In this document: positions 1,683 to 54,870 of the stretch, one piece after another
Numbering within the stretch: the first letter of the stretch is position 1
How the letters are laid out: each line of letters starts with the position of its first letter
DNA from: an uncultured Alphaproteobacteria bacterium
Lineage (GTDB): Bacteria > Pseudomonadota > Alphaproteobacteria > Rhizobiales > Beijerinckiaceae
Assembly: GCA_963774195.1 (NCBI GenBank)
Contig: CAVZDY010000004.1
Span: forward strand, 365,878-429,877
Length of the DNA: 64,000 bases
Direction: 5' to 3'
The notes under the pieces: generated by a model
What the model was told of the DNA's origin: nothing
Seen by the model: the letters and a program-made list of their open reading frames with translations, nothing else
Database searches by the model: none
Made by a program: the position numbers and the translations under genes

Positions 1683-2129
1683 ATGCTCGAAAGCCAACCC
1701 CTCGCGAAGCCTTTGTCGCCCGTTCGCAGCGGGCGCGCGACGCGTCCGGCGACGATCTGCAACAAGTCGACGAATGACCCCCGCTTCGTTCATGGGGCTG
1801 ACGGGCGTTCCAGGCTGATGCGCCGCCGCCGCGACCTGATCGCAATCTTCGTGGCGGACCTGGGTGGCGACGCCGCAGTGACGCCCTCCCTCATGGTGAG
1901 CGTGACACGTGCAGCGGACGCCGTCGCCATCGCTGAGAGCCATCGTTCCCGCGCACTGCGCGGCGAGGCGATCAACCTCGACGACTTGGTTCGAGTTGAG
2001 AACATCGCGTCTCGTGCCGTGAAGGCGCTTGGGATCAAGCCGGGCGCGGGTGGTGCGAAGCCTCCGTCTCTCAGCGACTACCTCGCGTCCCGCAAGCCTT
2101 CCCCTCCCGCTGAGGAGGCCGCGGAGTGA
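1683..2129 (+). CDS. Putative terminase small subunit-like protein
   Basis: DGRS..RRRRDLI..F..DLGG pattern; ends overlapping the terminase large subunit start. Confidence 0.5.
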   Translation: MLESQPLAKPLSPVRSGRATRPATICNKSTNDPRFVHGADGRSRLMRRRRDLIAIFVADLGGDAAVTPSLMVSVTRAADAVAIAESHRSRALRGEAINLDDLVRVENIASRAVKALGIKPGAGGAKPPSLSDYLASRKPSPPAEEAAE

Positions 2130-3640
2130 TCAACATCGTCGAAGCGATCGACGACCCCTCGCTGTTCGGCCCGTGGTTCCAAGGGCCGTCTTGGGCGACC
2201 TGGCGGGCGATCCTGAAGGCCGCCTTCGCCCTTCCCATGTCGAAGCGCGAGCGCGAGCTATTCCGCCGCGTCGCCGATCGTGAACCGCCTCGCAAGCGTG
2301 TCCGTGAGTTGTGGATCATCGCCGGCCGCCGCGCTGGGAAGGACAGCGTCGCGAGCGCCATTGCCGCATGGTTCGGCGCAATCCCAGACTATTCGGGCCT
2401 TCTTCGTCCGGGCGAAGCCGCGAGCGTCATGTGTCTCGCGGTCGATCGCCAGCAAGCCAAGATCGTCTTGAGATACACCAAGGCGTTCTTCGAGCGCATC
2501 GAGTTGCTGCACGGTCTCGTCACCCGCGAGCATGCCGAGGGCCTCGATCTCAGCACCGGCGCCGAGCTTTCCGTCTTGGCCAGCAACTATCGATCGGTTC
2601 GCGGGCGTTCCGTCGCGTGCGCTGTCCTCGACGAGTGCGCGTTTTGGCGATCCGACGAAAGCGTGTCCCCCGATACCGAGACATACGCCGCCCTCGTTCC
2701 TGGCCTCGCGACGCTGCCCGGTTCGATGATTGTCGGCATATCGTCGCCCCATCGTCGCGGCGGCCTTCTCTATGAGAAGTATCGAGCGCACTACGGCAAG
2801 CCCGACGACGACGTCCTCGTGATCCGCGCCCCGTCGCGGGTGCTCAATCCGACGCTCGACCAGAAGATCATAGACGACGCAATGGCGCGTGATCCGGACG
2901 TGGCTCGAGCTGAATGGCTTGCGGAGTGGCGCGACGACATCGCGACGTTCCTCTCTCGCGACCTAATCGAGAATGCCGTCGACACTGGCGTCCCGGTCCG
3001 TCCGCCGCGTCCCGATGTTCGATATGTCGGCTATGTCGACGCAGCTTCCGGCGTCGGAAAGGACTCTTTCGCCTGCGCAATTGCTCACGCCGAAGGCGAA
3101 GAGATCATCGTCGACTTGGTGCATGAAATCCGCCCCGGGTTTAACCCGACTTCGGCGACGGCTGAGGTTTGCGCGCTGCTCAAAACCTACAGAATCAGTA
3201 CAGTCCGCGGGGACAAGTATGCTGCCGGCTTCGTAATCGAAGCGCATGCGAAGTTCGGGATCAATTACCTGTACTGCGACAACGACACGTCGACGAACTA
3301 TCTCGGCGCGCTTCCGTTGTTCACCAGCGGACGCGTCAGACTTGTCGATAACGAACGCTTGGTCGCCCAGTTCGCAGGCCTTGAACGTCGGACGTCGCCG
3401 GGAGGGCGCGACCGGGTCGATCACGGCGTCGGTGATCGGCACGACGACGCGGCTGCGGCTGTGGCGGGCGCCTTGGTCCTTGCGACGCAACACGAGCCCG
3501 AAATCCCGGTCATTGCGCCGGTCCTGATCGGCAGGCCCGCGCCGCGGTACTTCCCCGAAAGCAGCATCTACACGGCGGGCGGCCTTGAAGGCGCGATCGC
3601 CGACACCCGCAAATCCGGATTTTCAAGGAGACTCGCATGA
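2126..3640 (+). CDS. Terminase large subunit-like protein
   Basis: Walker A-like AGRRAGKD, Walker B AVLDE, coupling motif ISSP, RNase H-like acidic residues (YVDAASG...DS; DH..GDRHDDAA). Confidence 0.8.
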   Translation: MINIVEAIDDPSLFGPWFQGPSWATWRAILKAAFALPMSKRERELFRRVADREPPRKRVRELWIIAGRRAGKDSVASAIAAWFGAIPDYSGLLRPGEAASVMCLAVDRQQAKIVLRYTKAFFERIELLHGLVTREHAEGLDLSTGAELSVLASNYRSVRGRSVACAVLDECAFWRSDESVSPDTETYAALVPGLATLPGSMIVGISSPHRRGGLLYEKYRAHYGKPDDDVLVIRAPSRVLNPTLDQKIIDDAMARDPDVARAEWLAEWRDDIATFLSRDLIENAVDTGVPVRPPRPDVRYVGYVDAASGVGKDSFACAIAHAEGEEIIVDLVHEIRPGFNPTSATAEVCALLKTYRISTVRGDKYAAGFVIEAHAKFGINYLYCDNDTSTNYLGALPLFTSGRVRLVDNERLVAQFAGLERRTSPGGRDRVDHGVGDRHDDAAAAVAGALVLATQHEPEIPVIAPVLIGRPAPRYFPESSIYTAGGLEGAIADTRKSGFSRRLA

Positions 3641-4887: not shown

Positions 4888-6206
4888 GTTTGGCGCTCAC
4901 AGTGCAGGAGCGTCAGAGGCGCAGCGGACGGTCGCCTAAAACATCCGCCGCGGAGGTCGTGCTCTTCGCTGGGGCAGCGGCCTCCGCATTTCAATCGAAA
5001 GGGAAGCTGATGGGTGAAGCGATCTCGTTAAAAGGCCTCCGCCGCACGCTCGCGGCCGCGACGCTTCTCGCCGCCTCGATCGGCCTTGCGCAAGCGCAGG
5101 GCGTCAGAATCGACGATCTCGGGAGCATCCCGTCGATCGACGGCTCGGAGAGCATGTTTTGCAGCCAGGACGGGACGCCGTATCGCTGCGCACCCGCGCA
5201 GATCGCGACCTATCTTCAAGGCATCATAGGGGGATGGCCGCTCACTTGGACGGCGCGCGCCACTTTTGCCGTAGCGCCAGTTTACACCGCGACGACCGGC
5301 TTTGGGAACTCGGTCGTCAATCCAGGAACCGGCTATCTCGAAAGCGTTCTCCCGGTCCAAACCATCACGGGCGCGTCTTACTCCTTCTCGACAACGGACC
5401 TATTTAAGAAGACGCGCCGCTCCAATGCGGGCGCGGCGATGGCAGACACGTTTCCTGCGGCGACGACGCTGGGAATTGTCAACGGCGCGCGCATCATTGT
5501 CTCGAATACGGACGCAACAGCCTCGATCACGATCACGGCGGGCGCCGGCACGTCGATGCCTTCCGGGTCGACCGACGTCATCGGCCCCGGCCGCGACGTC
5601 GCCTATGAATACGACGCGGCCTCGGCGACCTGGCGCGGAGCGTTCAACACGCGCACCGCGCTCCTGTCGGGCGGCGACGTCGCGATCGGCGCGAACGGCG
5701 CGACGCAAGTCAACAAGATCCAGGGGACGGCTGTCTCGACGCCGACCGGCTCCGGCGCCGTGGTGCTCGCGCAGAGTCCCGCGCTAACCGGAACGCCGAC
5801 AGCGCCTACCCAAACGACCGGCGACAATACGACGAAGATCGCGACGGATCAGTTCGTCTCGTCGGCGGTAGCGAACGCTGCAGCGGGCGCGATCCCTGCG
5901 CCGCAAGGACGCCTGACGCTGACGAACGGCTCACCGGTTATGACCTCGAATGTCTCGGCGGCAGGGACGGTCTTTTACGCGCCCTATGCCGGATCGAGCA
6001 TTCCGCTCTGGAACGGAACGGCGTTCGTCCCGAACTCGGTTCGCGCAACTCAGCAATGTCCTCGCCAACTCGTCGACCGGCAACGCCGGGCCGGCGGCTG
6101 CTGTCGCGTCAGCTCTCTATGATTTCTTCGTCTGGAACAACGGAGGCGCGCTTACCCTCACTCGCGGTCCTGCCTGGACAAGCGCGAACGCGCGCTCGCT
6201 GTCGAT

Positions 6207-8952: not shown

Positions 8953-11556
8953 ATGATCGAGGCCGGCACAGTTGGTGCAATTTTCCAAATTCAGGACGAA
9001 GCCTCCGCCACCCTTCGCAGGCTTGCCGGCGAGTTCGAACGGCTCGACGGGCTGATCAGCAGCACGAAAAAGGAGCTGTCGTCACTCTCCGCGACGCAGT
9101 TCTCCGGCATGATCAAACGGCTTTCGGGCGTCGGCCAGGAACTGACCGGGATCGGGGAAAAGTCGGCGGCCGCATCGAAGGCGATCGGCGAGAATTTTGA
9201 CGGCGCCGGCCTCGCAATCTACAAAGCGATCGAGACAGCAACGTCGAGCGTCTCGGCGAGCTTCGGCAAGATCGACACTGTGGCCGACACGTCGATCGCG
9301 GCGATCGGCAAGTTGAAGGCTGAATTGGCCAGTCTCGGCGCCGCAGCGAAGATCGAGACGCCGGCCATTGCTGCAGCTCAGCATATGCAGAGCTTTACGT
9401 ACAAAGGCCTTGGCGTAGGAGCCGGGCCCGACGGCAGCGTTGGCCGGCATGGCGAGCGCGGCAGCCACGGCCACATCACGCCCCATGGTCAAAGCGTCGG
9501 CCCTTATCACTTCGGCGGCGACGGCTTCATGGCGGCCGCCGGCGGGATCTTCGCCATCGAGGAGGAATTGAAGCATTCCTTCGATATGGCCCACTGGGTC
9601 GCGCAGATGCGCGCGGCAGGCGCCGATGCCAAGACGATCGCGGACGCTACCGGTGCGGCCTGGCAGAATGCCAGCCTGAACTGGAACACCACAGCCGCTG
9701 AGGGCGTCAAAAACATCATCGAGGCCAAGAAGGCCACGGGGGATTGGGGCGAGGCTATCAGGCTATTGCCCGCCCTCTCGACGGCGTCCTTCGCGCTTCA
9801 TTCGGTCACTGCGGCGGGGATGAAGGAAGGCTTTAACTCAGACGCGCAAATCCTGAACTTCGGCCGCACGCTCGACGAACTCGGCATCACCCAAAAAGGA
9901 GCGACCCCAGAGGCGCGCGAAGCGATCATCCGCGATTACTCCGCTGAGATGATCCGGACGATGATCGGCACGCGCGGCCTTGTCGACGCGAACCAGTTTT
10001 ACGCCATGGCCAACAATTCCGGCGGCACGGCGATGAACTGGGACGAGCGCTTCGCGACCGTCGTCGCCCCCATCATCGGGTCGATTATGAAAGCCGGGAA
10101 GCTTGGCAACAGCGACTATATGGCGTTGCGCAGCTACCAACAGGGCGTGATTCCGTCGAAGACGGTCGATCAAATGCTCGACCTGCAACTCCCCGGCGCC
10201 GATGGCAAGATGCGACCGATCAAGCTGCTTTCCGATGCCGATTGGTATCAGGACAAGGCGGGCGTGCACCTCCATCCGAACAACCCGTTCTCGGAAGGGC
10301 TCCAAACCAACCCCTGGGAATGGAGCGCGAAGATCCTGAAGTCGCTCAAGGCGCAAGGCGTCGACATCAGCAACCAGGACACGATGAACAAACTCGTCAA
10401 CGTGATCGCGCCGAACAAGTCGACCGGGCTGTTCATGCGCGAGCTGTTCGAACCGCTGGCGCGCGCGCTCATCCAAAAGGACATCGATTCGCGCGACGCC
10501 GTGCCGAAGGACGCCGCCGGCATTCTCCAGCGCGACGATCCGCTGCTCAAGATGGACGCCCTGTCCAAGAAGTGGCAGGACCTCATGACCGCGCTCGGCG
10601 GCCCAGTCACCGATCCGGCGATCGCCGCCTTGGTCAACTTGACCAAAGGCCTGAATGATATCTCGCAGTTTTTGACGAAGTACCCTGCTGCGTCGAACAT
10701 CTCCTCTTATGCCTTGACGGCCGCGGCGAGCATCGCGGTCCTTGCAGGCGCGATCAAGCTGCTCGGTCTCGCCGGCCCGCTGGCCTGGCTGTTCAAAGGC
10801 CCTGGTGGCGGCGCTCCTACGGCTCCGGCAGCGCCGGTTGCGCGCGACATGCTCGGCGACATCACCAAGACGGTTGAAGGCGCAGTCGACGGGGCCGTGA
10901 AAGGCGGCGCAGTCGAAGGCATGCTGAGCAAGACGCTGCGCGGCGGCGTGGTTGGCGGCCTCGTCTACGCTCTTGGCGATTGGGCGATCAACACGTTGGT
11001 CCCACTGACCCCGGAGCAGCAGAAGAACCTCGAGGATCATTCGGTGGCAGGATGGCTGCGCTACCTCGCCGAACAGGCGGCGCCGCTCATGTCAGCCGTC
11101 GGCGGCACTGTCCCAAACGCCTCGACTACGCCGATAACGCATCAGGAGCGGGCGACCCTTCCATATCTCAACAACCAAGACCTGCAAGGTATTGGCGCTG
11201 AGCCGGTCGTCTACCCCGGCCTTCCTGGCAGCAGAGAGGCTCAGCGCGCACGCGACGCGCTTTACAATGCCGGCTACTCAAGCGCCGCGCTCTCGGCCGA
11301 AATGGCCCGAGAGTCCGCTCGTGGGCGCGTCATGTCCTCGCCCGAATTCCGCGCCGCCAACCCGCCGAAAGTCGACGTCACCTTGAACAACCAAATCGAC
11401 AACAAGCTGACGATCTATATCGACGGCCAGCAGATCGTCGGCCGCGTCGTCGCCGAGGTCCAGTCGAAAATCATGCAAGGCGCCGAGTTCCGCAAGACGC
11501 CGGCGACCTTCGACACCCACGCCTCATTCGCCGATTCCGGCGCGGAGTTCGGCTGA
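8953..11556 (+). CDS. Tape measure-like protein
   Basis: 867 aa, Ala/Gly-rich helical composition, directly after the G/GT chaperone pair. Confidence 0.7.
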   Translation: MIEAGTVGAIFQIQDEASATLRRLAGEFERLDGLISSTKKELSSLSATQFSGMIKRLSGVGQELTGIGEKSAAASKAIGENFDGAGLAIYKAIETATSSVSASFGKIDTVADTSIAAIGKLKAELASLGAAAKIETPAIAAAQHMQSFTYKGLGVGAGPDGSVGRHGERGSHGHITPHGQSVGPYHFGGDGFMAAAGGIFAIEEELKHSFDMAHWVAQMRAAGADAKTIADATGAAWQNASLNWNTTAAEGVKNIIEAKKATGDWGEAIRLLPALSTASFALHSVTAAGMKEGFNSDAQILNFGRTLDELGITQKGATPEAREAIIRDYSAEMIRTMIGTRGLVDANQFYAMANNSGGTAMNWDERFATVVAPIIGSIMKAGKLGNSDYMALRSYQQGVIPSKTVDQMLDLQLPGADGKMRPIKLLSDADWYQDKAGVHLHPNNPFSEGLQTNPWEWSAKILKSLKAQGVDISNQDTMNKLVNVIAPNKSTGLFMRELFEPLARALIQKDIDSRDAVPKDAAGILQRDDPLLKMDALSKKWQDLMTALGGPVTDPAIAALVNLTKGLNDISQFLTKYPAASNISSYALTAAASIAVLAGAIKLLGLAGPLAWLFKGPGGGAPTAPAAPVARDMLGDITKTVEGAVDGAVKGGAVEGMLSKTLRGGVVGGLVYALGDWAINTLVPLTPEQQKNLEDHSVAGWLRYLAEQAAPLMSAVGGTVPNASTTPITHQERATLPYLNNQDLQGIGAEPVVYPGLPGSREAQRARDALYNAGYSSAALSAEMARESARGRVMSSPEFRAANPPKVDVTLNNQIDNKLTIYIDGQQIVGRVVAEVQSKIMQGAEFRKTPATFDTHASFADSGAEFG

Positions 11557-11834
11557 TGGCGGAATTAGACCGATCGCTTCTGCTGCCGAATAGCCCCGAA
11601 TTGGAGGCGGCTATCGAGTATCTTTTTGGGGAAGGGAAATGTAGCCGCGATAGCGAAAGCGAGGCTCTCCAGGAGGAGCATCGGGCAGCTCTTCGAGAAG
11701 CGATTTGTCAAGCGGAACGCGAACGGGCTGAGCGAGAGGGCGTCCCGTATGATCCTCAGACACAATCGCGAACGGCTGACCGTTCTCAAAGACAATATTG
11801 CATACTGACCGTCGGCCCACCGCTTCAAAGTTGA
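11556..11834 (+). CDS. Hypothetical protein
   Basis: 92 aa ORF whose start overlaps the tape measure stop. Confidence 0.45.
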   Translation: MAELDRSLLLPNSPELEAAIEYLFGEGKCSRDSESEALQEEHRAALREAICQAERERAEREGVPYDPQTQSRTADRSQRQYCILTVGPPLQS

Positions 11835-11983
11835 GCGCAATGTCGTCCGCCACGGCCTCGTCTCTCCCTTTTTCGGCATCCAAGCACCGGACGGGGAGCG
11901 AGTTCGAATCTGGGCGCCGCCACCTCGACAAAGGCCAGCGGGCCATGGTCGCGGCCAAGCCGCACGGGAGAGGTCAAGACGAA

Positions 11984-12472
11984 ATGCCGACGCCGCTTGA
12001 AAAGATGCCCTCATGGCAACGCACGATCGTCGAAGCCAGGCGCGCCGCGATGGACGGCCTGGCGCTCGAAGAGCAGGAAGCGGCCAAGCTGGCGCAGAAA
12101 GCGGCGCGGGAACGTGCGGCCGCGCGCCGTGAGGCATCCAAGCGGCTCGCCCAGAAGATCTACGCGATGTATTTCGACGGCGCCCACATCGGCGAGATCG
12201 CCCATGCCGTCGGCCGCAGCATCAGCAGCGTGCGCCAAGTTGCGGCCCGCTGGGGCTTCCCGATCTCGGTCAGCACGCAAATCCGAATGATCCCGGTTGC
12301 AGTGGCCGACGCCCGCGCTGCTGCGCTCGATCGGGCTTCGGCCGACTACGGCACGACGCGGGCACAGACGCTTGAGGACGCGATGACGTTCCTGCTCGAT
12401 GAGGACGCGCTCGCGCTGCGTCGGCTGCTGCATATCCGGCGGCGCGAAGCCGGCGCGGCTCTCACCGGGTAA
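11984..12472 (+). CDS. Putative HTH DNA-binding protein
   Basis: HTH-like GAHIGEIAHAVGRSISSVRQVAARWG; ATG at 11984 after GGAGAGG. Confidence 0.5.
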   Translation: MPTPLEKMPSWQRTIVEARRAAMDGLALEEQEAAKLAQKAARERAAARREASKRLAQKIYAMYFDGAHIGEIAHAVGRSISSVRQVAARWGFPISVSTQIRMIPVAVADARAAALDRASADYGTTRAQTLEDAMTFLLDEDALALRRLLHIRRREAGAALTG

Positions 12473-12612
12473 GCCATTGATTTTAATCGCCTCAAAATTG
12501 AGGTGCCGCTAAGTCCTTGATTTCAATCGGTCCAAATTTGGACCATCGCTAAGCCGTTGACTTTGAACGACGCAAAATTGCGCCATTGGGTTTCATCCCG
12601 CCCAATTTGGTC
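12470..12612. repeat. 40-bp-period array: IHF-like box plus variable-arm palindrome, three units and a partial fourth
   Basis: Units start at 12470, 12510 and 12550. Bottom strand reads AATCAATGGCTTA, AATCAAGGACTTA, AGTCAACGGCTTA. Palindromes are CCTCAAAATTGAGG, GGTCCAAATTTGGACC, CGCAAAATTGCG. Confidence 0.8.
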
Positions 12613-12640
12613 AGAAAGCGCCGCTTTCAGCTTCGCGACG

Positions 12641-12880
12641 TCACCAAGGAAGCGCCCCATCGGGCCAACAATCGAGCGTCGCTCGCGCGCCGATCTCCGT
12701 CATCTCCACCAGTTGCGCAGGCATACCTTGTGGCCCGAGCAACGTAAGGCTGTGCCCTGGCCCGAATCGGAACGAAATTCCGGTCTGTTGATGCTGAATT
12801 TGACGGGTGTCCGGAAGAACAGAGTAATCGATATATCGAAATCCTGGAGGAAGAGCTTCGTTTGCCATTGACACCACCAC
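12641..12880 (-). CDS. Small hypothetical protein
   Basis: 79 aa ORF converging on the repeat array. Confidence 0.4.
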   Translation of the reverse strand: MVVSMANEALPPGFRYIDYSVLPDTRQIQHQQTGISFRFGPGHSLTLLGPQGMPAQLVEMTEIGARATLDCWPDGALPW

Positions 12881-13018
12881 ACACGCGGGCGCTCAAAGCC
12901 TCGAGGCGACGCTATACCCTAGCTGAAGGTGGTAAAAGAGACGGGGTTCTTCAAGAGGGCTCGCTAATGGTGCGCCGCGAGATTTCCACGGCGGTTGCCG
13001 CATCGAATCCCGTACCAA

Positions 13019-13265
13019 TCATCTTGCCTTCCTCAGCCTCACGCCCGGCCCCTCGCCGTTCTCCTCGACGAAGATGACGCCAGCAGAATTCGAGGGCGCG
13101 CTGAATTGCCGCCAGATTCGGACTCGTCATACTGCCGACGCCATCCACAAGCTCAGCGCGACGTATGGTCGCGACCCCGACGCCAGAAGCGTTGGCCAGG
13201 TCCTCAGCTCGCCACCGGATCAGGGATCGCGCGGCCCGTATTTGAGCGCCGGTGATATCTGACAT
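13019..13265 (-). CDS. XRE-family HTH transcriptional regulator (apparent 1-nt frameshift near 13088)
   Basis: ITGAQIRAARSLIRWRAEDLANASGVGVATIRRAE; the shifted frame supplies the expected tail SAGVIFVEENGEGPGVRLRKAR*. Confidence 0.8.
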
Positions 13266-13371
13266 ATCGTTTGATCTCTCGTTTGACAATTGGCCATCGT
13301 GTGATATTCAGTATATCACGCGATGTATCGACGATCAAACGATCATTGCTGGACGCATCAAGGAGCAACCC

Positions 13372-14053
13372 ATGTCGAAACGCACCGTTTCGGCCGCCGG
13401 CGGAGCTATGCCCGCCCAAGGCCAGCCATCGAACCATCTGGACGCCGCGCTCTTCGCCCTCGCCGAGGAATGCATCGCGGCTGGTCGCGAGCGTGACAAA
13501 GCGCTCGACCGGCTGAAGGCCGCCGAAAAGCGCTATCGCCCGGTTCCGCCGCCGGCTGCCGTCCTTAAAACGGAGAAAGACGCGAGGCTTGGGCTCTACG
13601 TCGGCCCCGGTGCTGACGAGCCTTACGACCGCGAAGAAATCGCGGCGATCCGCGTCTTCTGCCGCGCCGAGGGCGCCAAGCCATGCGGCTCGTCAGTCAA
13701 AACCGCCGCCTATTTTCGCGGACTCGAAATCCTCGACGCCTGGGCAGACTGGCAAGAGAAGGTCGTCCGCGAGGAAGAGCGGTCCGGCTTGGCCGCGGCG
13801 ACGCGAGCCGACATCGAGACCGCAGGCAAGTTTGACGCGATCGCGGGGAAACTCGCAACGACGCCGGCCAGCACTGTCGAGGGCGTCCTAGCGAAGACCC
13901 GGGCGAACTCTTAGCGTCTTCGTCGGCGACGATGCGATCGCGAAGAGCATTCGGGAGGGATTGCGCCATTACGGGCCAAACGACGACGTCGTTTCGGAGA
14001 GCCTCGCGCGCGATCTTATTCGTTTGGTCAAGAGCGAAGGGGTTGCGAAATGA
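13372..14053 (+). CDS. Prophage hypothetical protein (apparent frameshift near 13905)
   Basis: ATG after AAGGAG, divergent from the XRE gene. The alternate frame gives a plausible C-terminus ending at 14053. Confidence 0.5.
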
Positions 14054-14161
14054 AAACCGCCCCGAACCGCGGCGCCGCGCTTGGCGTTCTCGCGTCCGCC
14101 AACAACGTGGCACAGAGCGTCCTTCGCGACTGGGCGCGCCTTTCACGGAGCGAGGCCGCCA

Positions 14162-15106: not shown

Positions 15107-16384
15107 ATGCCACAGGGTCGGATTTCCAAAAAGACCGTAGACGCCCTCGCCTGCCCCTCTGACAAGGACCGTGAAATTTTGTGGGACAGTGCGCTGGCGG
15201 GCTTCGGCGTTGCGGCCTTTCCCACAGGACGCAAGGTGTACGTGGCGCAATACCGCCAACACGGGCGCTCGCGCCGCGTCGCCATCGGCGAGCATGGCCG
15301 GCTCACCCCGGACGAAGCGCGCTCGGCGGCCAAAACGATCCTTGGACAGGTCGAGCAAGGAGCCGACCCAATTGACGAGCGGCGCAAGGCGCGAGCCGTC
15401 CGCACGTTCCAGGAGGTCGCCGACGACTTCATGAAGCTGCATGTCGCCGCCAAGCGGAAGGGGCGCACCAGCGAGGAATACGGGCGGCTCCTCCGCCTTC
15501 ACGTGCTTCCGGCGATTGGAGCGCGGCGCGTCTTGGACCTTCGGCGCACGGACCTTGGCCGCCTTCACGGGGAGATGTCTGAGACGCCCCGCACCGCAAA
15601 TCACGCGCTCGCGCTCGTTTCCGCAATCTGGAATTGGGCCGCGCGTCGCGACGAAGTGTCAGCAAGCGACAATCCGGCCAAAGGGATCGAACGCTACGCC
15701 GAAAATGGGCGCGAGCGGTTCTTGACGACCGAAGAGCTTGCTCGCCTCGGAGCCGCGCTGGCGGATGGCGAGTTGGTCGGATTGCCCTACGAAGTGGATG
15801 AGACGAAGCCCGGGGCGAAGCACGCTCCGAAGGCCGAAAAGCGCCGCGTCCGGCTCGACCCATTCGCCGCGGCAGCAATCCGCCTCTTGATCTTAACCGG
15901 GGCGCGCCTTCGCGAGATTTTGGACGCCAAATGGTCAGAGGTCGATTTGGAGCGCGGCGTGATCTTCCTCGCCGACAGCAAGACGGGCAAGAAGCCGATC
16001 TATTTGAGTGCGGCGGCGCAAGAGGTGTTGGCGGGCCTTCCGCGTGTCCAAGGGAATCCGCACGTCATCGCCGGAGCAAGGGAAGCCGCGCCCCGCGCCG
16101 ACCTCAAGAAGCCTTGGGCGGCAGTTACGCGCGCCGCTGGCCTTGAACGCTTACGACTGCACGATTTGCGCCATTCGTTTGCGAGCTTTGGTGCGGGCGC
16201 TTCGCTTGGACTCCCAATCATCGGGAAGTTGCTCGGCCACGCCCAGGCGGCGACGACGCAAAGATACGCTCACCTTGACGCCGACCCTATGCGCCGAGCG
16301 GTTGAAACAATTAGCTCTACGATTGGAGCCGCCCTAAACGGCGGCACAACACGCAATGTCATCGCCCTTGCCAAGCGCAAATGA
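15107..16384 (+). CDS. int: Tyrosine recombinase/integrase with N-terminal arm-binding domain
   Basis: Catalytic R (LTGARLREI), HxxR (LHDLRH), H (LLGH), Y (TQRYAH); about 160 bp from att. Confidence 0.95.
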   Translation: MPQGRISKKTVDALACPSDKDREILWDSALAGFGVAAFPTGRKVYVAQYRQHGRSRRVAIGEHGRLTPDEARSAAKTILGQVEQGADPIDERRKARAVRTFQEVADDFMKLHVAAKRKGRTSEEYGRLLRLHVLPAIGARRVLDLRRTDLGRLHGEMSETPRTANHALALVSAIWNWAARRDEVSASDNPAKGIERYAENGRERFLTTEELARLGAALADGELVGLPYEVDETKPGAKHAPKAEKRRVRLDPFAAAAIRLLILTGARLREILDAKWSEVDLERGVIFLADSKTGKKPIYLSAAAQEVLAGLPRVQGNPHVIAGAREAAPRADLKKPWAAVTRAAGLERLRLHDLRHSFASFGAGASLGLPIIGKLLGHAQAATTQRYAHLDADPMRRAVETISSTIGAALNGGTTRNVIALAKRK

Positions 16385-16622
16385 GCGACGCAAGTTACGC
16401 CGTCAGATTACGTTATGTATTGCCTCACTCCATCCCTGTCATATACGCTATCTTGATCCTGCATTACGGTATTATTTCTTTGGCTTGCCTTACGTTTACG
16501 TGTAATAATTCGCGAAAAACGTGGAAAAACCCACCTAGACGTCGAAAAATATACTTGACGCCCAATATGATGCTTGGTACCCCCCATAGCTTCTTGCTGA
16601 ATAGCGGTGACTATGGAGGGTT

Positions 16623-16865
16623 ATGATGGCGGGCAAGTTGTACACGGAACGAGAGGCGTCTGAGTATTTGAAGCGAGAGAGGGGCATTGACCGCGCACCG
16701 AAGACGCTACGCAAAATGCGCTGCACAAGCTCAGACGGTCCGAAGTTCTTCAAGCTAGGCCGCCGTGTTTATTACGAACAATCCGCTCTTGACGATTTCG
16801 TAACGAGCAAGCTCGGACCGTCGTACTCGTCCACATCCGAAATACGACAGGAACGCTTGAGATGA
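16623..16865 (+). CDS. Excisionase/AlpA-like HTH protein
   Basis: LYTEREASEYL...APKTLRKMRC...GPKFFKLGRRVYYEQSALDDF pattern. Confidence 0.8.
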   Translation: MMAGKLYTEREASEYLKRERGIDRAPKTLRKMRCTSSDGPKFFKLGRRVYYEQSALDDFVTSKLGPSYSSTSEIRQERLR

Positions 16866-17371
16866 TCACTCTTATCGGAGACGAATACGATCAAAAGCCA
16901 AAGGCAGTGTTCGGCATAAAGAAGCAAACGCCCAAAGGTGAGCGAGTTGTGGCGCTGATAGACAGACCGCATGCGGACTCAAGTGAAAGAGCAAAAGAGG
17001 ATTTTGCTCAACTACAGTCAATGTCTTGGTCGCCAAGAATACTCTGCCGCGACACTGAAGGTAGTGATGTGCTTGGATGCGGTTATATACTGTGTGAAGA
17101 TGCGCAAGGAAGACCGGAATTTGCGAATATGGTGATTGTCGAAATGGTTTTGTCTCCGCGGCAATTTGGAATGCGCAAACTTACGTTTTATTACCACAAA
17201 GGCAAGCGCCCGCGCTCTAAAGCACAAATTGAGGCGTACAGGGAGGCAAATGAGCACAAGGGGTTCTTGTTTGCCGGGACTGATCCGATTGCTAATTTAG
17301 AAACACACGTTGAGCACGTTGTCGCGCGTATTCGTGCTCTCTCTCAACAAAGCGCGCCTAACTTCGATTGA
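16862..17371 (+). CDS. Hypothetical protein
   Basis: 169 aa ORF overlapping the upstream stop. Confidence 0.6.
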   Translation: MITLIGDEYDQKPKAVFGIKKQTPKGERVVALIDRPHADSSERAKEDFAQLQSMSWSPRILCRDTEGSDVLGCGYILCEDAQGRPEFANMVIVEMVLSPRQFGMRKLTFYYHKGKRPRSKAQIEAYREANEHKGFLFAGTDPIANLETHVEHVVARIRALSQQSAPNFD

Positions 17372-25308: not shown

Positions 25309-25386
25309 TGGCGCGCCCGAAGAGATTTCGAACTCCTGACCCCCAGATTCGTAGTCTGGTGCTCTATCCAGCTGAGCTACGGGCGC
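25309..25386 (-). tRNA. tRNA-Arg(ACG)
   Basis: GCGCCCGTAGCTCAGCTGGATAGAGCACCAGACTACGAATCTGGGGGTCAGGAGTTCGA...GGGCGCGCCA. One extra base in the T arm relative to the att copy. Confidence 0.95.
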
Positions 25387-49718: not shown

Positions 49719-49836
49719 CCCGACCTCCTCCCAGGGAACCCGGGGCAAGTCATTCAACGCCGACTCGGGCCTCGACGCAAGCGGCCCGGCCGGGAATTGA
49801 CATGGCCAGCCGAACGCCTAGGATCTCACTTCTGAA

Positions 49837-49883
49837 GGGGATGGAGTCCCCCAAAACCGCCTGTCCAGGCTGATGACTCCTGC
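49837..49883 (+). promoter_or_regulatory. Fluoride (crcB-motif) riboswitch
   Basis: GGGGATGGAGTCCCCCAAAACCGCCTGTCCAGGCTGATGACTCCTGC: P1 GGGGA/TCCCC, P2 GCCTG/CAGGC, pseudoknot GGAGT/ACTCC, conserved GATGG and CTGATG. Confidence 0.9.
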
Positions 49884-49963
49884 CGCGTCGCGCGCGTGGC
49901 AGGGGCCGTTTGATCTCCTATACGCCCTGCCGCTCGCCGCGACTCCAGAGCATGGAGGTCGAG

Positions 49964-53987: not shown

Positions 53988-54214
53988 GCGGCTAGCGCCG
54001 CGCTTGGCAAGAACAGGGGATCGGAGGCGATGCGTCCGCGGCCACGCGCGTTGGAGACGCGAGGCGTAGACGTTGACCCGCCGCCGCGACCGCTCGTGGC
54101 TCGGTCAAGCGGCGAAGAGCCGCTCAGCCGACCCCGCGAGGGTCAGATGCTGCGCCGTAGCCGCTCTCGCGCCGCAGGAAGCTCCTGTCAGCGAAATCCG
54201 CGGCCATCGTTTGG

Positions 54215-54400
54215 AGGGGAATGACCCTTCCGCACACCCGGCAAGATAGACAAGCCTCTTCGGTAAGCCGACCTTTGGAGGGCCGTCAGAGACGAAAAAG
54301 CCCGGTCCGTCGTTGCTTCAAGTCGCGTCCCCCGTTTGGCGGGGTGCGCCGGTTTGCCTCCGGCTGCCGGTCTGCCTAGGGCGGTTAACTGGCCTCTTGT
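54215..54400 (-). promoter_or_regulatory. speF leader RNA motif (alphaproteobacterial orphan riboswitch candidate)
   Basis: Minus strand ...CCGGCGCAC...GCAACGACGGACCGGGCTTTTTCGTCTC...CCAAAGG...GAAGAGGC...TTGCCGGGTGTG resembles the speF motif as recalled; sits upstream of the decarboxylase. Boundaries approximate. Confidence 0.65.
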
Positions 54401-54870
54401 CCAGATCCCCGCCGACCGACACACGACCACAGGCACGTGCGTATTGGGCAAGTTCTTATTTGTGCGAATCACCTCTGAAAGCAAGAGGTTTTTTTCGCTT
54501 CGCGCAATTTTTTCTCACTCCGTCACAAAACCTTCACGAACACGCCTCCCCAGGGGGAGTACGGGCGGGTCGAGGCCCGCTTGGAAAAGGACACGGCTCG
54601 CCCTGGTTCGCGGAGCGCACACAATCTCCAATCGCCTGCCGTTAGGGCTCGCCGCAGAAAAGATTTTGCTCACGCACGCCGCTCATCTGCTGTCTTTACA
54701 TGTCTTCGCTTTGGCAGATCGCGGCAAACCGCCATTCGAGCCAATCCAACCGGAAACGAAAACTGTTGAGGGGGCGCCAAAAACGACAGATCATCGTTGT
54801 TTAAGCAATGCTTTTTCTCTACCCAAGTCCGAGACCGAGGCCTGTGAGCGCACGCGTTAGGGAGGAGGCC

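Follow-up and report, generated by a model that had tools for sequence, protein, structure and literature searches.

A single IHF covers about 35 bp of DNA, and in the H′ site of lambda attP, a full-length IHF site, an A-tract is followed after about 8 bp by WATCAANNNNTTR, a geometry taken from the IHF-H′ complex. Restraint of the phage gene rha by IHF has been known since the 1980s and 1990s, the Rha phenotype of P22 and phi80 being that the phage fails to grow on IHF-defective hosts, and to our knowledge no mechanism has been defined for this restraint. In its remarks on this gene, PMC4936722 (citing Henthorn & Friedman 1995) describes Rha as regulated by IHF and P22 rha as IHF-dependent. 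For E. coli, the RIB/RIP elements (BIME-1) were described, in which REP palindromes flank an IHF site at the 3′ ends of transcription units (PMC3333891).

The window, i.e., the whole stretch of 64 kb that was analyzed, is high-GC alphaproteobacterial DNA with a prophage-like left quarter. It carries an array whose units each combine YAANNNNTTGATW, i.e., the IHF consensus in reverse, with a palindrome behind it that is centred on A/T and has arms that vary and still pair. Reading of the sequence from 12200 to 12900 bore out the description in an earlier note on this DNA, namely three non-coding units (starts at 12470, 12510 and 12550) at a spacing of exactly 40 bp, with IHF-box matches on the bottom strand that are exact in units 1 and 2 and one base off in unit 3, and a partial fourth unit, here a degenerate copy at 12579:

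12470-12509, plus strand: unit 1, TAAGCCATTGATTTTAATCG CCTCAAAATTGAGG TGCCGC; IHF consensus AATCAATGGCTTA at 12470-12482 (bottom strand); palindrome CCTCAAAATTGAGG at 12490-12503; minus-strand reading L-N-F-E-A-I-K-I-N-G-L
12510-12549, plus strand: unit 2, TAAGTCCTTGATTTCAATCG GTCCAAATTTGGACC ATCGC; IHF consensus AATCAAGGACTTA at 12510-12522 (bottom strand); perfect palindrome of 16 bp, GGTCCAAATTTGGACC, at 12529-12544; minus-strand reading S-K-F-G-P-I-E-I-K-D-L, in a frame different from that of unit 1
12550 to about 12589, plus strand: unit 3, beginning TAAGCCGTTGACTTTGAACG ACGCAAAATTGCG; IHF box AGTCAACGGCTTA at 12550-12562, with one mismatch to the consensus; palindrome CGCAAAATTGCG at 12571-12582; minus-strand reading R-N-F-A-S-F-K-V-N-G-L
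12579-12612, plus strand: decayed unit 4, overlapping unit 3 (spacing 29) and 68% identical to unit 1; short palindrome CCAATTTGG at 12602-12610

A repeat search placed the units in one family (D1) with spacings of 40, 40 and 29 bp, an identity of 77–81% and a degenerate fourth copy at 12579-12609; the array escaped Tandem Repeats Finder. With up to three mismatches allowed, the 20-nt left half TAAGYCNTTGAYTTYRAWCG has three matches in the 64 kb, all of them in the array (0.13 expected), and exact WATCAANNNNTTR is found twice in the window, both times on the bottom strand of the array (units 1 and 2; 0.33 expected). On the bottom strand of every unit AAAWTT lies 10–11 bp upstream of WATCAA, i.e., the A/T tract is placed about one helical turn 5′, and for this reason a unit is approximately one IHF footprint long. 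A/T-centred palindromes of the array type comprise, in the window, the array copies and one chance match, shuffled sequences containing on average about one per 64 kb, and none of the copies in the 64 kb lies at a promoter. The units fall into three different minus-strand frames, and 40 is no multiple of 3. A scan for promoters and terminators yielded zero sites within 12440-12640, and Rfam gave no match over the array, neither at the gathering threshold nor at E-values up to 10. The RNA fold of the array has z = −2.0 for the plus strand and −0.8 for the minus strand. A search of sequencing runs for the locus returned fragmentary soil-metagenome contigs only and no RNA. Moreover, AATCGGAACGAAATTCCGG at 12765-12779 resembles the junction of box end and palindrome in unit 2 (73% identity, repeat family D2); it lies 240 bp rightward and may be one more decayed unit.

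The window contains the following features around the array and beyond it:

73-675: helicase fragment
2126-3640: large terminase gene, 9 kb from the array
8953-11556: ORF of 867 aa, tape-measure-like by eye, with no protein family matched
11945-12472, plus strand: P0001, the gene upstream of the array, 175 aa, HTH-like
12447-12469: recombination junction; homology of P0001 stops at about 12446
12641-12880, minus strand: ORF of 79 aa facing the array, GC3 (third-codon-position GC) 0.54
12951-13289, minus strand: gene of an XRE-family HTH regulator that points towards the array; first solid gene on this strand
15107-16384: tyrosine integrase, 2.6 kb from the array
49828-49889, plus strand: fluoride riboswitch (Rfam), an ordinary chromosomal feature
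54171-54449, minus strand: speF leader and adjoining sRNA ar45 (Rfam), ordinary chromosomal features, ar45 being alphaproteobacterial; with the riboswitch, they assign the host to the Alphaproteobacteria

The array had been placed between convergent genes by the earlier note. This holds on the left, where the TAA stop of P0001 forms the first three bases of unit 1. On the right the nearest minus-strand ORF, at 12641-12880, is probably not a real gene since a comparison with 5.8 billion proteins gave no homologue and its GC3 is 0.54, which leaves the XRE gene as the first solid convergent gene. The latter is frameshifted near 13040: after ..AIQRALE the other frame reads SAGVIFVEENGEGPGVRLRKAR followed by a stop, and it is this continuation that is matched by intact XRE relatives of 76–77 aa (L015, 6676-6909; L257, 5667-5897), so that the gene is either a pseudogene or affected by a sequencing error. 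As the 79-aa ORF is doubtful and the XRE gene frameshifted, the array sits within roughly 500 bp of non-coding or decayed DNA. P0001 has just two known homologues (62% identity); they sit in early regions of phages, and neither is followed by an array. In the DNA alignment the homology to P0001 switches at about 12447-12455 to a homology to antisense rha, where GCTCTCACCGGG, from about 12455, aligns to antisense rha codons (L-P-G-E-S versus L-T-G-E-S); the C-terminal end of P0001 comprises 8 residues beyond its homologues, which are added by this antisense-rha stretch.

Regarding the wider setting, the gene order at 8953-12472 is odd for a prophage, the 867-aa ORF being followed by a 92-aa ORF and the homologue of an early-region gene instead of tail genes, and the prophage element looks rearranged or truncated. 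Directly past the integrase gene, at 16300-16900, the GC content falls to 0.43–0.53, which may mark the attachment-site end of the element; a tRNA-Arg gene is found at 25309-25386, 9 kb beyond this drop. BLAST of phage records gave no match, and BLAST of plasmids only a short conserved piece of the XRE gene.

The origin of the units was traced by a scan of IMG/VR for TTGAYTTYRAWCGNNNCAAAWTTG, resulting in 16 loci. In 8 of these the motif belongs, on the opposite strand, to an intact gene composed of a Rha N-terminal domain and an antirepressor-like C-terminal part, where it encodes ..(R/L)NF(A/E)PFKINDLTGE... Likewise, the opposite strand of each unit of the array matches the segment x-N-F-x-x-F-K-I-N-D-L of Rha-family antirepressors. 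By tblastn, RHLNFEAIKINGLPGES (12508-12458) shows 70% identity to Rha over 17 aa, a match that reaches past the array into the end of P0001. Unit 3 is identical in 21 of 21 nt (CGCAATTTTGCGTCGTTCAAA) to an intact rha gene (L013/L141), and the arm classes of units 1–3 correspond to the known rha allele classes LNFE, S(N/K)FG and RNFA. The units are thus not free-standing elements but antisense copies of a conserved stretch of Rha-family genes, and their constant AAA(A/T)TT core corresponds to the invariant Asn-Phe codons. It is very probable that they are rha-derived modules made up of an IHF consensus and a hairpin. The earlier note had missed this antisense rha identity as well as the position of the array at a recombination junction. 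Within the 64-kb window neither a rha gene nor other parts of one were found, only about 13–17 codons per unit match, and an ORF covering the winged-helix domain of Rha (Phage_pRha) is absent at the array. The array has homology to rha DNA, but as only 13–17 codons per unit remain it is neither a rha gene nor a recognisable pseudogene.

Within rha genes, the segment is under constraint as nucleic acid, besides its constraint as protein. In a set of 15 rha genes from IMG/VR the codons flanking the invariant AAT-TTT are reverse complements of each other with differing residues, i.e., CGC..GCG (R/A), CTC..GAG (L/E), CTG..CAG (L/Q) and CAC..GTG (H/V), next to ACG..CGA (T/R), in which pairing is only partial; TCC..GGA (S/G) is found in further rha paralogues (L164). 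Therefore, a hairpin-forming palindrome is written across the protein code, and the pairing of its arms often runs on into neighbouring codons. In the aligned rha units 79% of cells are paired, compared to 70% in column shuffles and 30–35% with slid partner columns, and double-change cells number 12 compared to 3.5 in shuffles; 0 of 500 shuffles reached this value, and since the sequences are related to one another these counts cannot be read as probabilities. Furthermore, the Leu codon of the motif (K-I-N-D-L) is TTA in 15 of 15 rha genes, compared to 6 of 312 for other Leu codons, and WATCAANNNNTTR is retained in 13 of the 15. The same layout is found in P22 rha, with GCGCATTTTTGCG, 9 nt and then AATCAATAACTTA at codons homologous to the unit, and in a Bordetella phage antirepressor, with GCGCAATTTTGCGC and then AATCAATGGGTTA, while in rha of phages of E. 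coli (Stx-type), Pseudomonas and Acinetobacter, one each, the palindrome is preserved and the IHF consensus is not. The palindrome-plus-IHF layout in rha is old. A literature search found neither an intragenic rha palindrome nor arrays of this kind described; Henthorn & Friedman 1995 lay outside this search.

Overall, complementarity of the flanking codons was seen in rha of phages of Alpha-, Beta- and Gammaproteobacteria (L139-L153, L164, L170, L172, L253-L255). Two or more Rha-like ORFs (205-519 and 590-988) lie side by side in L164 (205-1080), with a third x-N-F-x′ site further on; three such sites each have a palindrome of their own (GCGCAAAATTGCGC, ATCCAAAATTGGAT, CTCCAAAATTGGAG), and between the two ORFs lie an oppositely oriented non-coding unit and a lone palindrome. 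The rha gene of L016/L146 (about 6121-6158) carries a hybrid palindrome, GGCGCAAAATTGAGCC, with the left arm and flank similar to one rha type and the right to another, which suggests that two alleles crossed over at the A/T centre.

Outside of rha genes, the module recurs in non-coding DNA. A metagenome scan with a pattern excluding the rha form yielded 16 loci, which were pooled with the IMG/VR loci; together these contain 21 distinct non-coding units at 15 loci including the window, on at least 14 other high-GC phage or metagenome contigs. The conservation of the IHF half and the core in these copies is partly circular because the search patterns fixed these positions, the arm columns being left free (N). 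In the arms, 82.5% of cells are paired, compared to 68% in shuffles and 33–39% in slid controls, and 29 cells are double changes compared to 10.5 (0 of 500 shuffles as high; the sequences are related, so that these are again not probabilities). This agrees with the claim of the earlier note that the arms pair although they differ. Across these loci 32 palindromes were found in 229 kb compared to 0.55 in shuffles, a few palindrome classes recur across different loci, and secondary units that were not selected by the search pattern keep their palindromes too.

Similar arrays, which the earlier note had expected in other elements, are present in two contigs. In L015 the boxes are spaced by 39, 40, 62 and 94 bp, the TAA stop of a GpA-type large terminase gene (TerL) marks the start of the array, and from the other side an operon composed of an XRE gene and an AT-rich gene converges on it. 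The array of L154 comprises two units at a distance of 41 bp, with a ParE/XRE pair on one side and, convergent to it, a HU-family gene on the other. In this contig the Bac_DNA_binding (HU/IHF family) gene at 3014-3622 (minus strand) ends about 20 bp from the two-unit array, and a ParE-like toxin with an XRE antitoxin lies on the other side. An XRE gene is thus found near all three arrays (window, L015 and L154). Units lie 69–84 bp apart in L155, L163 and L165, the remaining loci have lone units or lone palindromes, and in L157, L167, L165 and L018 truncated rha fragments end at the unit. A scan of genome contigs with a strict two-unit pattern returned two irrelevant repeats only, this pattern being too strict and also missing the window's own genome, and in two looser scans of IMG/VR for two boxes AT-rich phages dominated, with L015 and L018 as the only gain among high-GC contigs.

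The absence of an array from homologous elements had been named in the earlier note as an argument against a functional site, and it is found in part. The 180-aa gene to the right of the XRE gene has homologues of 84–89% identity in two long contigs (L257, L258), whose DNA aligns with the window at 13359-14086 and along part of the XRE gene (about 90% identity). These two have no match over 12473-13020 and no unit, and no units were found in the close relatives of the 180-aa gene (L257-L260); at the convergent junction of their own, the related elements carry an ordinary GC-rich hairpin followed by a run of T. Because the closest relatives lack it, the array is a recent or local acquisition of this element.

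The best explanation overall, to which we assign a probability of roughly 45%, is that the array consists of rha-derived IHF/hairpin modules that possibly form a phased IHF barrier. According to this proposal, the array would represent three to four tandem non-coding copies of a cis-element of about 40 bp that normally resides inside Rha-family (Phage_pRha) antirepressor genes, in antisense orientation to rha, where a recombination junction has joined them to the 3′ terminus of an unrelated gene. One part of the element would be the IHF consensus WATCAANNNNTTA over the K-I-N-D-L codons, the other the hairpin-forming palindrome about 10 bp upstream, centred on the invariant Asn-Phe codons AAT-TTT, with its A/T centre roughly where strong IHF sites carry their A/T tract. 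Host IHF would bind each unit, and given a footprint of about 35 bp the units would be packed side by side at the 40-bp spacing. The bent nucleoprotein block together with the hairpins might then keep convergent transcription units apart as a barrier or insulator, as is thought for E. coli RIB/RIP (BIME-1). Within rha itself, IHF would restrain Rha expression by way of this module. It is a tentative and rather doubtful part of the proposal that the array in the window continues to work as an IHF barrier. The ordinary hairpin with its run of T at the corresponding convergent junction of related elements counts in its favour. The locus is decayed, with the XRE frameshift, the doubtful ORF, the fused gene end, the lost consensus in unit 3 and the degraded unit 4 all speaking against a barrier, as do the closest relatives without an array and the scan without promoter or terminator sites.

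The same decay suits a serious rival to the barrier, although this rival is on balance somewhat unlikely. Short-patch or illegitimate recombination among rha genes of different phages, with the conserved 35-bp patch as a foothold, followed by slippage amplification in a decaying prophage, could have left a functionless scar. A recombination junction directly to the left of the array, closest relatives without the array, decayed units 3 and 4, a frameshifted XRE gene and a doubtful neighbouring ORF are in line with such a history, and so are the truncated rha fragments that stop at a unit and the hybrid palindrome of L016/L146 with its suggested crossing-over at the centre. The pairing of the arms would not require selection at this locus: it could have been inherited from the parent rha alleles, i.e., imported ready-made by recombination or gene conversion, because the arms of units 1–3 match common rha allele classes, or it could have been kept by template-switch ‘quasipalindrome correction’. 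What this history accounts for less well is that independent arrays in unrelated contexts share the spacing of about 40 bp and the position at a gene end, and that secondary units outside of the search pattern still have palindromes. Moreover, random gene decay would leave other parts of rha, and none exist elsewhere in the window.

An element acting at the RNA level is unlikely. The units could serve as stabilizing hairpins in a 3′ UTR, or as antisense to rha mRNA of three allele classes, which might silence antirepressor transcripts of the own or of incoming phages. Antisense RNAs are known to act on antirepressor genes (P22 sar; an oop-like RNA has been reported in the vicinity of rha). The stop of the upstream gene inside unit 1, here and in L015, the stronger fold of the plus strand and an excess of G.T over A.C pairs in unit orientation (22 versus 6) would suit a transcribed element. 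However, P22 and Pseudomonas rha have G.T on the sense strand instead, so that the bias does not hold throughout, and the sequences are related to each other; furthermore, the array shows no promoter or terminator signal and no Rfam match, and the 64-kb window contains no rha target gene. A wider version of this idea is very unlikely: the module would be a conserved signal overlapping the code, by which the host IHF level gates Rha expression across Proteobacteria, and the arrays would be copies co-opted against the antirepressors of competing phages, as antisense segments in 3′ UTRs or as titration sites, i.e., a small sequence-based immunity array.

It is highly improbable that the units are operators for dimeric regulators of several specificities, e.g., of XRE or Rha type, assisted by IHF. 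The short palindromes, GC-armed around an A/T centre and falling into a few classes that recur across loci, and the XRE gene near each array, would be compatible with the variable operator array that the earlier note had considered. This suggestion found no support, as no matching palindrome lies at any promoter of the window, one array would require three different regulators, and the arms are as variable as a constraint on structure alone permits. Finally, a cos/pac packaging site, an attP arm, a telomere-resolution site or an iteron replication origin, part of which had also been suggested by the earlier note, has next to no probability: only generic IHF boxes and repeats and, for packaging, the position of the L015 array after a large terminase gene point in this direction, whereas terminase and integrase are at 2126-3640 and 15107-16384, the units are only 77–81% alike, no replication or partition gene is adjacent and the unit occurs inside rha genes at varied genome positions.

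The array was also compared with several named elements. A lambda-type cos, which adjoins the terminase genes and has a nicking site and terminase-binding repeats, does not fit, with the large terminase gene 9 kb away. An attP of a tyrosine integrase is found beside int, with near-identical arm sites and a core that recurs at the prophage ends; here the integrase lies 2.6 kb off, the units are 77–81% alike and the left prophage end lies outside of the window. A CRISPR array, in which near-identical repeats of 23–47 bp alternate with unique spacers of about the same length, does not fit because the whole period is 40 bp and conserved and variable parts alternate within it. Repeats of a type III toxin-antitoxin system (ToxI-like), which are near-identical and precede a gene for a ToxN-type endoribonuclease, were dismissed as the units are 77–81% alike and the neighbouring ORFs have no match to such a family. 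By inspection only, promoters (sigma-70, sigma-54), the alphaproteobacterial LexA box, CtrA and FixK boxes, oriT nick regions and the cores of serine and tyrosine recombinases misfit in spacing or half-sites.

For the preferred reading, i.e., rha-derived modules that possibly form a phased IHF barrier, the meaning extends beyond this locus. The data point to one concrete conserved site inside rha, found from P22 to alphaproteobacterial phages, in which the hairpin arms covary at the expense of amino-acid identity, and this gives a handle on the action of IHF at rha. It is also a clear case in which a nucleic-acid signal within a protein-coding gene takes precedence over the choice of codons and even of residues. 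As the non-coding arrays show, the module can leave rha and accumulate at phage module boundaries.

Compared to known systems, the unit resembles P22 rha in having a palindrome, 9 nt and then AATCAATAACTTA at the homologous position. In contrast to rha of P22 and phi80, the window has no rha gene and retains only the module of about 40 bp, repeated and in antisense. With lambda H′ the units share an A/T-rich hexamer 10–11 bp upstream of WATCAA, which is a geometric comparison only; unlike in H′, this A/T tract is enclosed by covarying GC arms that make up a palindrome, a feature not required of IHF sites. A contig from IMG/VR (L085, 915-1090) has five IHF-like boxes, TGTAAGTCATTGATTTTAAAGCA, at spacings of 39, 39, 36 and 39 bp, and thereby shares the YAAGTCATTGATTTT box and a similar period with the array, but it is a low-GC contig with nearly identical copies, without an A/T-centred palindrome and unrelated to rha. 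These boxes adjoin an aminotransferase-like gene, and other AT-rich phage contigs have two to four such boxes in intergenic DNA (L075, L044, L069).

As a summary of these comparisons, the array may work most like the RIB/RIP (BIME-1) elements of E. coli. Both combine an IHF consensus with hairpin palindromes whose stems vary and stay complementary, and both are extragenic, at gene ends between convergent genes (PMC3333891). The location is similar in that unit 1 contains the stop codon both here and in L015, and that convergent genes flank the arrays of the window, L015 and L154. The array fails the defining features of BIME-1 because it has no GTAG-type REP consensus (no GTAG/CTAC), no inverted REP pair, with one palindrome per unit and all units direct, and no dispersal, there being one locus within the 64-kb window; it is moreover phage-borne and derived from coding sequence. 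If functional, such arrays would be to phages what the IHF-binding REP elements are to the chromosome.
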